Shown: positions 24,871 through 37,187 of the stretch, one piece after another
How the letters are laid out: every line of letters starts with the position of its first letter
Numbering within the stretch: the first letter of the stretch is position 1
Source: an uncultured Thermoplasmata archaeon
GTDB taxonomy: Archaea > Thermoplasmatota > Thermoplasmata > Halarchaeoplasmatales > Halarchaeoplasmataceae
Length of the DNA: 43,190 nt
NCBI GenBank assembly: GCA_964454575.1
Contig: CAYVTG010000004.1
Location: 1-43,190, forward strand
Direction: 5' to 3'
Notes under the pieces: model-generated
Seen by the model: the letters and a program-made list of their open reading frames with translations, nothing else
Told to the model about the DNA's origin: nothing
The model's database searches: none
Translations under genes and position numbers: made by a program

Positions 24871-25410
24871 ATGCTAAATGTATACAGATGTTGGATATGT
24901 GGGGAAACCTACTTGGGCGAAGAGCCCCCGTCGGACTGCCCCTTTTGCGGTGCCGACAGAAAATTCCTGAAGCCCGGCGAAGAGTACGAATACCCGGACG
25001 TAGAGTTGACCGAAGTTTCCAAGAAAAATTTAGAAGCCGCATTGGAATTGGAAGTAGATAACGCAACTTTCTATTTCTGTGCATACAACAGATCGGACGA
25101 TCCGAAAAAAGAAGGCATGTTTAAGAGGTTGGCTAAAGTAGAGTCCGAGCACGCCGAAGCGATATGCATGTTCCTTGATATCGATGAACCTAAGATAAAC
25201 AAGAACTCGGAAGACTGCTCGCACCACTTCCCGGACCTTTTAGAAGACGCTAAAACTAGAGAGACGGGAGCGATAAATCACTACAAAAAGTTCGCTGCAG
25301 AAGCCGAAGAACCACGTGTTAAGGAATTCTTCGAAGCCATCGTCGAGATCGAGACAGATCATCTTGAATTACACGCACACGAGATCGAAGAGTTGGGCGA
25401 AGAACACTAG
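24871..25410 (+). CDS. Rubredoxin-ferritin-like fusion (reverse rubrerythrin-like)
   Basis: N-terminal CWICG...CPFCG followed by two E..H diiron helix pairs (ESEH, ETDH). Confidence 0.85.
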   Translation: MLNVYRCWICGETYLGEEPPSDCPFCGADRKFLKPGEEYEYPDVELTEVSKKNLEAALELEVDNATFYFCAYNRSDDPKKEGMFKRLAKVESEHAEAICMFLDIDEPKINKNSEDCSHHFPDLLEDAKTRETGAINHYKKFAAEAEEPRVKEFFEAIVEIETDHLELHAHEIEELGEEH

Positions 25411-25490
25411 TTCCGAAACACAAAATTTATTTCACCCCTCTCTCTGTGGGCTGTCCGGCAGATGGTTAATTCAAACCATCTTTAGCAATC

Positions 25491-25695
25491 GCCATCGTAG
25501 CTTTCTCACAATCTAGAACGAAGATTCCAAGAAGCTAAGATGACTCACTCCGTTCGCCATCGTAGCTCAGTCGGAATTTAAACAGCAAATTCCAACAACC
25601 TACGAAGGCTCATTCCATTCGCCATCGTAGCTCACTCGGAAAAACGAACAGATTTTTCCAAGAAGCGACGATTCGTTTCACTCGCCATCGTAGCT
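25491..25695 (+). repeat. Tandem array of tRNA-Thr 5'-end duplications separated by ~52-nt structured units
   Basis: GCCATCGTAGCT starts at 25491, 25556, 25621 and 25684 (the tRNA itself); periods 65/65/63. Confidence 0.92.
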
Positions 25696-25755
25696 TAGCG
25701 GTAGAGCGGCTGGTTTGTAACCAGCAGGTCGGGGGTTCAATCCCCTCCGATGGCT
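25684..25755 (+). tRNA. tRNA-Thr(TGT)
   Basis: Acceptor GCCATCG/CGATGGC, anticodon arm GCTGG-tt TGT aa-CCAGC, T-loop TTCAATC; CCA not encoded; T-rich tract follows. Confidence 0.96.
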
Positions 25756-25765
25756 TCTTTCTTTT

Positions 25766-26069
25766 TAACCCCACTTATCTTGGTTTCTAAACAATGAGGG
25801 CATTTCATGATGAACCTTCCCCCAGTCCTTATCCTCGATATGCCTATAGTTGAAATCCAGGTCTTCTCGAGTGTCTTTGATCGAGAGAGATGAGGAATTT
25901 GTAATTCCTCTAGATCAGAAAGCCGTGGTGTATCTAGATAGATGAAGTTCATCGCAGTTCCTCCGTATAGAGACAGCCTTTTCGATAAGAATTCAGATTT
26001 CTTTATCGAATCTAACATATCACATAATCGCCTCATCTTTTCCGTTATTTCATCCGAGTAACCATTCAT
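25766..26069 (-). pseudogene. AbiEii-type nucleotidyltransferase toxin remnant (50-nt insertion, truncated)
   Basis: LYGGTAMNF...PRLS in one frame continues as EDLDFNYRHIEDKDWG in another frame after 50 nt, then hits a stop near 25766. Confidence 0.85.
25867..25916 (+). mobile_element. 50-nt structured insertion related to the tRNA-array units
   Basis: Removing it rejoins RLS|EDLD. It carries a GA-hairpin-GA motif and GAGGAATT-TGT-AATTCCTC. Confidence 0.65.
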
Positions 26070-26876
26070 TCAAACACCTCTCAGAAGATCTTCTAGATGT
26101 TTTGGTACGTAAAGTCCCCATCTTTTTTTTAATTCGCTGGAAACATCTCGATCGATGTAAACGGGTTTCCATCCAGGAGTCGGTCTTAGGGGTTTTAATT
26201 TTTCTTTTTCGATATGTTCGTAGTAAGGTGATCGATCTCGTAGCATCTCCAAAACATATCCGCACTTCAGTTCTAAAGTCTTGTTATTGTAGCTTGAAAG
26301 TACATCCTTTATGTTCTTTAGAGAGATACCTTTGAGGTTCGCAAGACTTTTGAGACATTCCTCCCAACCTCCGCAGAGATCGGTTCTGGAAAGGCAATCG
26401 ACGAAGGTTCTTTCAAGATCCGTTACTTTCAAACTTGTGTTTTTGTATTCGATGGACGTGATGTGCCCGAGGTGGTGTTTATTTACGACGGGGATGTAAC
26501 CGACCCCTTGAAAATCAAATCGTCTGAACCTATTTTTTTTCGCTACTATGATGAAGATCCTGGTGAAAGCGGAATGTGCCGAACCGTGTAATTCTAACGC
26601 GGTGTGATATCCCAGGGCATCGCATTTTTCGAGTTTGTTGCCGACTAAGTATCGGTCCGCTTGAAAATCTTCTTCCAGTTTGTCCAAAGGAATACCATAG
26701 TACAAGCCTTTCCTGACCTTCTTTAACTTCGCTTCTTTGATGAGCTTGTGTAGATATTTTCTGTAATAATATTCGTCCTCGACATCGAATACCTTTTTTG
26801 AGATATGCTTCAGGTCTTGGACGTTGACGACCTTCCTCTTCAGGACCTCTTGGTAAAACCGTTCTTTTTTGTTCAT
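26070..26876 (-). CDS. AbiEi-type antitoxin / transcriptional regulator
   Basis: N-terminal wHTH (L.KVRKGLY), YHTALELHG, VTDLERTFVDCL.R..LCGG.EE, GY.LE; directly upstream of the abiEii remnant. Confidence 0.88.
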   Translation of the reverse strand: MNKKERFYQEVLKRKVVNVQDLKHISKKVFDVEDEYYYRKYLHKLIKEAKLKKVRKGLYYGIPLDKLEEDFQADRYLVGNKLEKCDALGYHTALELHGSAHSAFTRIFIIVAKKNRFRRFDFQGVGYIPVVNKHHLGHITSIEYKNTSLKVTDLERTFVDCLSRTDLCGGWEECLKSLANLKGISLKNIKDVLSSYNNKTLELKCGYVLEMLRDRSPYYEHIEKEKLKPLRPTPGWKPVYIDRDVSSELKKRWGLYVPKHLEDLLRGV

Positions 26877-26904
26877 CTGGATCCCCTTTTGTAGATGTGA
26901 TGCA

Positions 26905-26995
26905 TTATGTTCTCTTATATTGGACATTAAAGAACATACTTACATATAAGTTTTTTGTGGTTCTGTTACGTAATGTTCTACCATATGAGACATTA
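26905..26995. promoter_or_regulatory. Two related 25-bp imperfect inverted repeats flanking the abiEi TATA box
   Basis: TTATGTTCTCTTATATTGGACATTA (26905-26929) and TAATGTTCTACCATATGAGACATTA (26971-26995), 19/25 identical; minus-strand CTTATATG lies between them. Confidence 0.65.
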
Positions 26996-33178: not shown

Positions 33179-33251
33179 TAGCCCCGCCCGGATTCGAACC
33201 GGGGACTCAGGCTCCAAAGGCCTGAATGATTGACCGCTACACTACGGGGCT
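33179..33251 (-). tRNA. tRNA-Gln(TTG)
   Basis: Acceptor AGCCCCG/CGGGGCT (A1-U72, typical of archaeal tRNA-Gln), anticodon arm CAGGC-ct TTG ga-GCCTG, T-loop TTCGAAT. Confidence 0.96.
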
Positions 33252-33382
33252 AGTGAACGAAGTGAGCTAGTGCCGTAGAAGGAGGAATCTGTGATTCCTG
33301 CGCACTACGGGGCTTTTGTGTTGCAAAACCCCCGAGTATTTGGAATTGCTACTCAATTCCGAAACACTACGGGGCTTTTGTG
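33240..33382 (-). repeat. Tandem array of tRNA-Gln 5'-end duplications separated by ~50-nt structured units
   Basis: Top-strand CACTACGGGGCT at 33240 (tRNA), 33303 and 33365; periods 63/62. Confidence 0.9.
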
Positions 33383-36856: not shown

Positions 36857-36917
<61 letters not shown>

Positions 36918-36932
<15 letters not shown>

Positions 36933-37187
36933 TACCAATTTTTCATTTTTCGAGGCCGGGATTTGTTTCACGAGCTAAGACACTTCTTAGCGAGCGGTTA
37001 GAATGTTGAACGAAGTGAGGCATTCTGAGTTGAATCCGGCCGGGGCGCCATACCGATTTTTCATTTTTCGAGGCCGGGATTTGTTTCACGAACATGAATA
37101 CGTTTTATTCATGTGAGCGCACTGAATAATGAGCGTAGCGAGTTATTGAGTACAGAAGGCTGGCCGGGGCGCCATACCAATTTTCAT
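36918..37187 (+). repeat. Tandem array of tRNA-Asp 3'-end duplications with structured variable units
   Basis: GGCCGGGGCGCCATACC at 36920, 37038 and 37162 (periods 118/124); the first two copies share ~55 nt. Confidence 0.92.

Follow-up and report, generated by a model that had tools for sequence, protein, structure and literature searches.

Tandem hairpin modules that copy the 5′ end of tRNA-Thr(UGU) upstream of its gene in a Thermoplasmata archaeon

Introduction

In the tyrT/tyrV tRNA-Tyr operon of Escherichia coli, distal 178-bp repeats located downstream copy the tRNA 3′ end and are linked with the rtT RNA (Rfam RtT). Integrative elements leave partial tRNA copies (attL/attR) in archaeal and bacterial tRNA genes. 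REP/BIME/REPIN elements and integron attC sites are clustered, short imperfect palindromes that are not matched to the end of a neighbouring tRNA, and CRISPR arrays consist of identical repeats of about 23-50 nucleotides (nt) and unrelated spacers of similar length. The t-elements are a further feature, found in plant mitochondria. In Haloferax volcanii, a tRNA-like t-element lies upstream of 5S rRNA and is cut by RNase P and tRNase Z (PMC4326828). Here we describe a tandem array of hairpin units that copy the 5′ end of tRNA-Thr(UGU) just upstream of its gene, in a 43,190-nt stretch of contig CAYVTG010000004.1 (hereafter the window) from an uncultured Thermoplasmata archaeon (assembly GCA_964454575.1; 1.87 Mb, 133 contigs, 94% complete).

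The array shares with the tyrT/rtT repeats a tandem, non-coding layout on a tRNA gene, the copy of a tRNA end in each unit and a poorly understood function. However, its units are 63-65 nt long, lie upstream in the leader, copy the 5′ end and carry an antisense arm that makes a hairpin, and the RtT covariance model did not match the units in our Rfam scans. Like att scars, the units are direct repeats of a tRNA-gene end beside an intact tRNA, an arrangement in which stacking at one tRNA is possible; in contrast to such scars, no element or integrase lies between the repeats 63-65 nt apart, the 5′ end is duplicated, and an antisense arm and a covarying hairpin are present. With REP/BIME/REPIN elements and attC sites the array has in common that structure is conserved more than sequence, that bases are bulged and that arrays expand, but no link of the modules to a RAYT-like protein or an integron integrase was found, and Y1 transposase genes showed no phyletic correlation with the modules. 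The alternation of repeat and variable segment is as regular as in a CRISPR array, and unit number likewise varies between strains, but the variable segments here are homologous hairpins and not acquired spacers, and the part of the repeat is played by the 5′ end of the tRNA itself. Finally, t-elements resemble the units as non-tRNA precursor structures that imitate part of a tRNA and are possible substrates of tRNA-processing enzymes; as far as the description in that source goes, those elements have an acceptor stem together with a T-arm and do not copy a tRNA beside them (PMC4326828). The units here have no T-arm, take their sequence from their own tRNA and fold as a single long hairpin with an internal loop; at this locus, tRNA models (ARAGORN and Rfam, E up to 10) found nothing but the tRNA-Thr gene itself, and the units are not tRNA-like. 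When the 4227 families of Rfam 15 were searched at E up to 1-10, the tRNA alone matched at the window locus and at nine other module-bearing loci. Neither these RNA libraries nor the papers searched yielded a description of tRNA leaders with such 5′-end copies.

Results

The array is the local representative of a family of tRNA-end-anchored hairpin modules that is confined to one lineage, Halarchaeoplasmatales-like Thermoplasmata. Modules of this family either precede a tRNA gene and copy its 5′ end or, in mirror image, follow the gene and copy its 3′ end. We delimit this working class, which has no published definition, by features that were all found in the array: units bounded by an exact copy of the adjacent tRNA end, an antisense arm in register, one or more inner hairpins, tandem arrangement and location on the strand of the tRNA. 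Among the 34 tRNA genes detected in this genome by the Rfam tRNA model, 12 were preceded, at up to 400 nt, by a stretch identical to the gene's own first 9 nt; no gene had such a copy downstream, and the reversed-seed control gave no match. Conversely, an exact copy of the last 9 nt was found within 400 nt downstream of nine genes and upstream of none, again with 0 in the control. tRNA genes belong to the best-studied genes, yet in total more than half of those in this genome (19/34) carry structured repeats copying the gene's own end, at one end or the other, whereas none of 23 tested tRNAs (of 37 found) had 5′ or 3′ end copies in G037, a complete genome from another family. The design is specific neither to tRNA-Thr nor to 5′ ends. 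The original prediction had regarded repeated duplication of a 5′ end as unusual; in this genome, either end is used. We based the genome-wide claim on exact-copy counts because antisense scores failed to discriminate: ungapped scoring did not separate cognate from non-cognate antisense, and when 19 units were ranked by duplex energy, the cognate 5′ end came out on top in just two and among the first two in six.

At the Thr locus, the 12-mer GCCATCGTAGCT occurs on the + strand at 25491, 25556, 25621 and 25684, with a spacing of 65, 65 and 63 nt, and the fourth copy is nt 1-12 of tRNA-Thr(TGT), the sole tRNA-Thr(UGU) found in the assembly. Allowing up to one mismatch, six matches were counted in the window vs 0.11 expected, and none of 100 shuffles reached six; the whole genome contains five exact copies, the four of the array and one on contig C29 in a tRNA-free stretch. 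In each unit, the sense copy is followed by a short internal loop and a GGAA...TTCC inner hairpin, then by an antisense arm that matches imperfectly, and last by 8-11 nt of C/T-rich linker (Table 1). The antisense arms read AGCTAAGATGAC (25533-25544), CTACGAAGGC (25600-25609) and AGCGACGAT (25664-25672), the inner hairpins AATCT/AGATT, GGAATTT/AAATTCC and GGAAAAA/TTTTTCC, and the linkers TCACTCCGTTC, TCATTCCATTC and TCGTTTCACTC, the last of which is the immediate 5′ flank of tRNA-Thr itself; the linker of the modules is also the flank of the tRNA at -1 to -11. The layout put forward in the original prediction was recovered in full: an array based on the 5′ end of the tRNA, four copies of that end at the expected spacing, an imperfect antisense stretch and an inner hairpin in each unit, and the linkers between them. 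The sense block of 12-14 nt is 100% identical across the four copies and whole units are about 72% alike; because of this divergence outside 14 shared bases, Tandem Repeats Finder reported no repeat in the array. An open reading frame (ORF) scan found no ORF within it. We refer to these units as type 1. No further copy of the Thr units was found in the genome, where a Thr-only model (R1), which proved too specific to this tRNA, matched the three window units and gave one weak match.

Folding of both strands, which the original prediction had proposed as a check, gave structures better than those of shuffled sequences in all four settings. For the 205-nt stretch, the z-scores were -3.1 (+ strand) and -4.7 (- strand) with RNA parameters, and -4.2 and -5.8 with DNA parameters. 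The hairpin part of unit 1 folds at -14.0 kcal/mol (z -3.67) with 11 of 13 arm positions paired, unit 2 at -18.0 kcal/mol (z -6.14), and unit 3 at -14.7 kcal/mol (z -2.47) with 8 of 13 arm positions paired and the outer three unpaired. We then compared 16 type-1 Thr units from the window and from the loci of seven relatives (G001, L027, G004, G005, G020, G024 and G002). A sense/antisense outer stem, an internal loop and an inner hairpin are common to 15 of the 16 (z -2.0 to -6.1), and one degenerate unit of G020 departs from the shared fold (z -0.4). In register, 145 of 192 cells of the outer arms are paired; a shift of the partner by 1-3 nt lowers this count to 38-90. In the alignment of these units (A1), standard pairs make up 82.5% of cells vs 26-44% when slid, seven pairs have changed on both sides, and the covariation score was reached by none of 500 shuffles. 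For instance, pair 15-42 is C-G in ten units and G-C in four, and 3-5 pair types were seen at each of the three pairs in the distal part of the inner stem; no covariation was seen at position 13. A simple decayed tandem duplication without compensatory change, the outcome that the original prediction had named as speaking against it, is not what this alignment shows. Conserved motifs were also found among the unpaired bases, namely TCAYTCCAYTC in the linker, CTCAxTC/CCAAGAA in the loop and the invariant GA...GA of the second module type described below. A general type-1 alignment across tRNAs (A4) was structurally inconsistent, and no model was built from it.

A second type of module (type 2) occurs in more distant genera and at tRNA-Asn of this genome. 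After tRNA nt 1-9 come NGA, a stem-loop, NGA and NUA, then a stretch antisense to nt 2-6 in which G7 is bulged out; a short A/U hairpin lies directly against the copy that follows. In an alignment (A2) of 16 modules, drawn from the tRNA-Asn and tRNA-Thr loci and from one orphan array, 85.5% of cells are paired vs 40-50% when slid, 16 of 23 pairs have changed on both sides, and 0/500 shuffles reached the observed score. Position 10 is paired in every module (C-G in eight, U-G in five, G-C in three). In the loci retrieved, the first 9 nt equal those of the downstream tRNA (Asn, Thr-UGU or Thr-CGU), and at a tRNA with G9 the partner base has changed as well. Arrays frequently follow the order type 2, type 1, tRNA. 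A test for the strand under selection, based on wobble pairs, had opposite outcomes in the two module types, with 8 G.T vs 20 A.C in A1 and 19 vs 10 in A2. The type-2 covariance model was run on 150 genomes of the class and found copies in 13 of 17 genomes of family f1, all three of f2 and one of seven of f10, and in none of 123 genomes of 26 other families. In the present genome it found eight strong copies, four before tRNA-Asn and four on contig C35.

The copies on C35 form the orphan array (C35:53-262, locus L061), four type-2 modules with no tRNA behind them. The 3′ flank of this array has AAGGAC..GTCCTT and CACATC..GATGTG hairpins and is found again on contigs C9 and C33. Type-2-like solo elements of about 55 nt were seen at C28:6781-6870, C26:17103-17166 and C93:806-859; they are 94-97% identical and have unrelated flanks, and the C93 copy lies within a long open frame whose translation reads as a putative TnpB-like C-terminus.

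Modules at the 3′ end of tRNA genes combine an antisense of that end with a CACGA-hairpin-YGAGCG element and a GTTAGAAT-type hairpin, after which come the sense copy and the tRNA's own T-rich trailer; these mirror arrays are located behind T-rich terminator-like tracts. Two further tRNA genes of the window carry arrays. Upstream of tRNA-Gln(UUG) (33179-33251) are two modules of 62 and 63 nt (33252-33376, - strand), each of which opens with AGCCCCGTAGTG, the 5′ end of tRNA-Gln, and has a GGAAT..ATTCC inner hairpin and an antisense arm; four related modules lie at tRNA-Gln(CUG) on contig C97. Downstream of tRNA-Asp (36857-36929) is a mirror-image array (36918-37184, +), in which the tRNA 3′ end with its T-rich trailer recurs at 36918, 37036 and 37162, spaced by 118 and 124 nt. 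Its units contain the 3′-end antisense GGCCGGGATTT, a CACGA-hairpin-YGAGCG element and a GTTAGAAT-type hairpin; the stem of the CACGA-hairpin-YGAGCG element differs wholly between the two units.

We further compared the Thr locus among relatives. Homologues of the window's rubrerythrin were found in metagenome-assembled genomes of Thermoplasmata, Candidatus Saliniplasma, Natronoplasma and Halarchaeoplasma, the last placed by the NCBI taxonomy in the order Halarchaeoplasmatales, and their habitats are soda-lake and hypersaline sediments. The order of rubrerythrin gene, promoter-like box, modules and tRNA-Thr(UGU) is kept across the family, and the genes downstream of the tRNA vary. Modules were recognisable in 14 of the 16 family relatives whose locus was retrieved; none was found in the family relatives G012 and G021, nor in G037 and G034 outside the family. 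Unit number ranges from one to at least five, so that the variation between strains which the original prediction had proposed to look for is present. Because several relatives' contigs end within arrays, we consider that the arrays break assemblies at tRNA loci, and tRNA and CRISPR annotation may be misled by them. The closest relatives (G001 and L027) have two units, orthologues of units 1 and 2, and none of unit 3. In both, a near-identical unit 2 adjoins the tRNA, and the inner hairpin of unit 1 has been wholly replaced in each with arms and linker unchanged; such wholesale replacement of hairpin tips between genomes with identical flanks recurs. Within one DNA run (X3), a contig with the joint 25609>25673 skips 63 nt, which is the exact loss of unit 3, and another has an additional unit ahead of unit 1. 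Gain and loss of whole units in register is thereby shown both between genomes and within one population. Two near-identical neighbouring units in G005 indicate what would be a recent duplication, and distal modules have mutated arms.

The modules also change in concert with their tRNA. The 5′ strand of tRNA-Thr has three variants in the family (GCCATCG, GCCACCG and GCCACTG), and of the 15 genomes whose module is intact, 14 have at module positions 2-9 the variant of their own tRNA, G002 being the exception. The antisense follows the tRNA in GCCACTG genomes (AAGTGG), but L030 and L031 (GCCACCG) retain GATGG, and hence the sense arm tracks the tRNA more tightly than does its pairing partner. 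Unit turnover and the identity of sense arm and tRNA fit unequal crossing-over or gene conversion between tRNA-end copies. At locus L026 of G001, a 3′ module also lies just downstream of tRNA-Thr, with a split T-arm copy, GGTCGGGGGTTCA ... GATCCCCTCCG, and CGA-hairpin-GAGCG and GGGGAAC..GTTCCCC hairpins inserted at the T-loop position; the window tRNA-Thr has no 3′ module of this kind.

As for transcription, the motif NWTTTATYT directly follows the rubrerythrin stop codon in 10 of 12 related loci; it precedes the modules in each case and lies at a distance of 85-260 nt from the tRNA; we take it to be the promoter from the archaeal TATA consensus. Because this sole conserved promoter-like box sits upstream of the modules, we infer that the array is transcribed as most of a leader of about 230 nt of the tRNA. 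An RNase P RNA gene is present (C35:7580-7947, 186 bits). It spans 368 nt vs the 288 positions of the archaeal model and therefore probably carries insertions.

The putative precursor was folded with a model that ignores tertiary structure, modification, salt and kinetics. In folds of growing prefixes, every nascent prefix was predicted to pair each sense arm with the antisense arm of its own unit (S1:A1, S2:A2 and S3:A3). The minimum of the full precursor was -96.7 kcal/mol, vs -90.5 kcal/mol for closed modules plus the cloverleaf, and it shifted the register: the sense arm of unit 2 would pair with the tRNA 3′ strand and the antisense arm of unit 2 with the sense arm of unit 3. The original prediction had paired each antisense with the copy downstream of it. 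This pairing is seen only in the equilibrium fold of the full precursor, whereas the growing transcript would pair the upstream copy of the same unit, and the covariation at position 10 of the sister type-2 modules fits the within-unit register. The window units may pair in either register.

Discussion

We tentatively read the array as a tandem repeat that perpetuates itself with the tRNA end as its anchor, mostly selfish or neutral and carried in the discarded leader, and we put the probability of this reading at about 45%. According to it, recombination between the end copies would let the array grow and contract and would also keep it identical to the tRNA, and the modules would be transcribed with the pre-tRNA and then discarded when RNase P cuts at +1. 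A free spare 5′ acceptor strand would compete for the 3′ strand of the tRNA, and selection would keep each spare copy closed off in a hairpin that it forms co-transcriptionally with the antisense of its unit. In the folding model, the three spare sense arms do compete in this way, at probabilities of 0.18, 0.37 and 0.37 for pairing with the tRNA 3′ strand, and shuffling of the antisense arms lowered the probability of the true acceptor stem further, from 0.02 to 0.001, with none of 60 shuffles at the native value. We propose that the compensatory changes arose because spare 5′ strands are sequestered in this way, for which no positive function is needed. Absence from two of the 16 relatives, mutated distal arms and replaced tips mark the modules as dispensable, decaying and turning over. 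If the array is selfish, discarded pre-tRNA flanks would be a new niche for repeat DNA, and tRNA genes and their flanks would have a new way to evolve in concert.

Several results weigh against a selfish repeat in the leader. That the modules are harmless would depend on folding kinetics, because the antisense arms give no rescue of the tRNA at equilibrium in the model. The acceptor stem had a predicted equilibrium probability of 0.02 with the array vs 0.96 with an 11-nt leader, and the domain-wise fold lies 6 kcal/mol above the global minimum. Arm position 2 is paired in just four of 16 Thr units. The better fold of the minus strand and the excess of A.C over G.U (20 to 8, + strand) do not favour selection at the level of the transcript. 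The conserved unpaired motifs suggest specific recognition, of which a purely neutral repeat has no need, and modules persist at the Thr locus across at least eight genera. Unit 3 is no copy of unit 1 or 2, and its antisense type occurs in another genus (G020); therefore, recent simple duplication cannot explain all units. Finally, one metatranscriptome run (X13) yielded a single 80-nt contig at depth 2 over 25540-25605, which crosses the junction of units 1 and 2 with one mismatch. It demonstrates neither transcription nor processing, both of which we infer.

A doubtful but by no means far-fetched alternative is a functional pre-tRNA leader, in which the modules would act in cis, as RNA, to control or aid the maturation of the tRNA. 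Pairing of the tRNA 3′ strand with a sense arm farther upstream could create extra RNase P entry sites; alternatively, a register switch could let the last antisense capture the tRNA 5′ strand and so gate acceptor-stem formation. This alternative is consistent with the position of the modules between the conserved promoter box and the tRNA, with covariation that preserves structure in both module types, with conserved unpaired motifs and a linker identical to the tRNA's own leader, and with the retention of Thr-locus modules in most family relatives (14/16). Moreover, two alternative registers lie at most 6 kcal/mol apart in the model, pairing of the 3′ strand with a sense arm at equilibrium would rebuild an acceptor/T-arm stack at each copy, and the RNA-library contig over the unit junction points weakly in the same direction. 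However, because modules are missing in G012, in G021 and in all out-of-family genomes searched, they are unneeded for tRNA-Thr. Unstable unit number, decay of distal modules, 3′ mirror arrays behind terminator-like tracts, orphan arrays and solo copies without a tRNA, and an inconsistent wobble bias toward the transcript strand also argue against a function in the leader. That the modules are a new class of cis-encoded RNA that imitates the ends of its own tRNA and governs its maturation seems to us unlikely. In such a scheme the hairpin chain would shift register, so that the last antisense takes the tRNA 5′ strand or an upstream sense arm takes the 3′ strand, and this shift would time or gate the access of RNase P, and of tRNase Z at 3′ arrays. 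A functional array would be a tRNA-specific device controlling maturation; if such control is true, salt-adapted Thermoplasmata would gain a tRNA-specific layer over tRNA supply, kept by concerted evolution.

We consider it improbable that the units are mobile modules of folded DNA, that is, tiny non-autonomous elements which, as single-stranded hairpins, would be inserted or excised by a recombinase or transposase whose gene lies at another site. Such elements would be likened to integron attC sites, REP/RAYT and IS200/IS605 ends, with the antisense as guide or half-site for the tRNA-end target. Dispersal of the kind known for miniature inverted-repeat transposable elements is suggested by the three solo copies of the 55-nt type-2-like element (C28, C26, C93) and the four-unit orphan array on C35, but the type-1 Thr units have no other copy in the genome. 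At each junction, antisense, 11-nt conserved spacer and sense together make an inverted-repeat site; the antisense is nevertheless tRNA-specific, so a generic element would need to be rebuilt for each target. Exchange of hairpin tips like cassettes, arrays at both tRNA ends and the better folding of the bottom strand would also suit a folded-DNA element. On the other hand, no recombinase gene adjoins the array, a double-stranded circle of 63 nt is implausible, and genomes of f2 have modules (3/3) but no Y1_Tnp (0/3), whereas many module-free families carry Y1, among them f3 (5/5) and f18 (9/12).

It is very unlikely that the array is a simple decayed tandem duplication or a series of att scars of integrative elements with unselected structure. 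The tandem layout, the partial tRNA copies, the variable unit number and the differing genes downstream of the tRNA, here an AbiEi-like gene, are what such an origin would leave. Against it stand the compensatory changes with a covariation score that no shuffle reached, the in-register pairing of the antisense and the recurrence of the same architecture at many tRNAs and in many genera, and units of 63-65 nt leave no space for an element or integrase.

There is virtually no chance that the locus is a CRISPR-like memory array with the tRNA 5′ end as repeat: the regular spacing and repeat/variable/repeat layout on which the original prediction had based this likeness do hold, but the analogy is contradicted by the homology of the 'spacers', which are structured and about 60-72% alike with a common fold, the exact repeat is merely 12-14 nt plus a shared linker, and Rfam CRISPR-DR models gave no match at gathering score in 25000-26200, where a chance-level match of 20.7 bits (26165-26199) falls within the AbiEi-like ORF; no search aimed at cas genes was made.

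Additional observations

The features of the Thr locus are collected in Table 1. The leader contains, ahead of unit 1, a predicted hairpin in the place of which relatives carry a different hairpin. Archaeal termination occurs at oligo-T tracts, and the trailer of tRNA-Thr is a likely terminator of this kind.

Table 1. Positions of the features at the tRNA-Thr locus, numbered along the window.
Feature	Position	Strand	Remarks
Rubrerythrin-like gene	24871-25410		upstream of the array
B recognition element (BRE)/TATA-like box AATTTATTT	25424..25432	+	presumed promoter of leader and tRNA
First leader hairpin AGATGGTT / AACCATCT	25460..25481	+	unrelated to the tRNA; predicted in the domain fold
Unit 1	25491..25555	+	sense 25491-25503, inner hairpin 25510-25526, antisense 25532-25544, linker 25545-25555
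Unit 2	25556..25620	+	sense 25556-25567, inner hairpin 25573-25593, antisense 25598-25609, linker 25610-25620
Unit 3	25621..25683	+	sense 25621-25632, inner hairpin 25638-25659, antisense 25664-25675, short linker 25676-25683
tRNA-Thr(UGU) gene	25684..25755	+	ARAGORN; Rfam tRNA, 69.6 bits
T-rich trailer TCTTTCTTTTTA	25756..25767	+	likely archaeal terminator (terminator-like call)
AbiEi-like antitoxin gene	26070-26927	-	Pfam AbiEi_1, 25.4 bits

When GGAA..TTCC hairpins were screened for arms on either side, the outcome was noisy (115 vs 81 in the control). Perfect-stem GGAA..TTCC hairpins are nonetheless strongly enriched around tRNA genes: they gave 426 strand-specific matches, 102 of which lie within 450 nt of the 34 tRNAs, and such flanks make up about 1.8% of the genome. 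Other ORFs scanned near the Thr locus include RHH, FtsZ-like and QueF proteins. An ORF of 110 amino acids without a Pfam match (25737-26069, - strand) adjoins the AbiEi-like gene, and its 3′ end overlaps the 3′ end of tRNA-Thr on the opposite strand.

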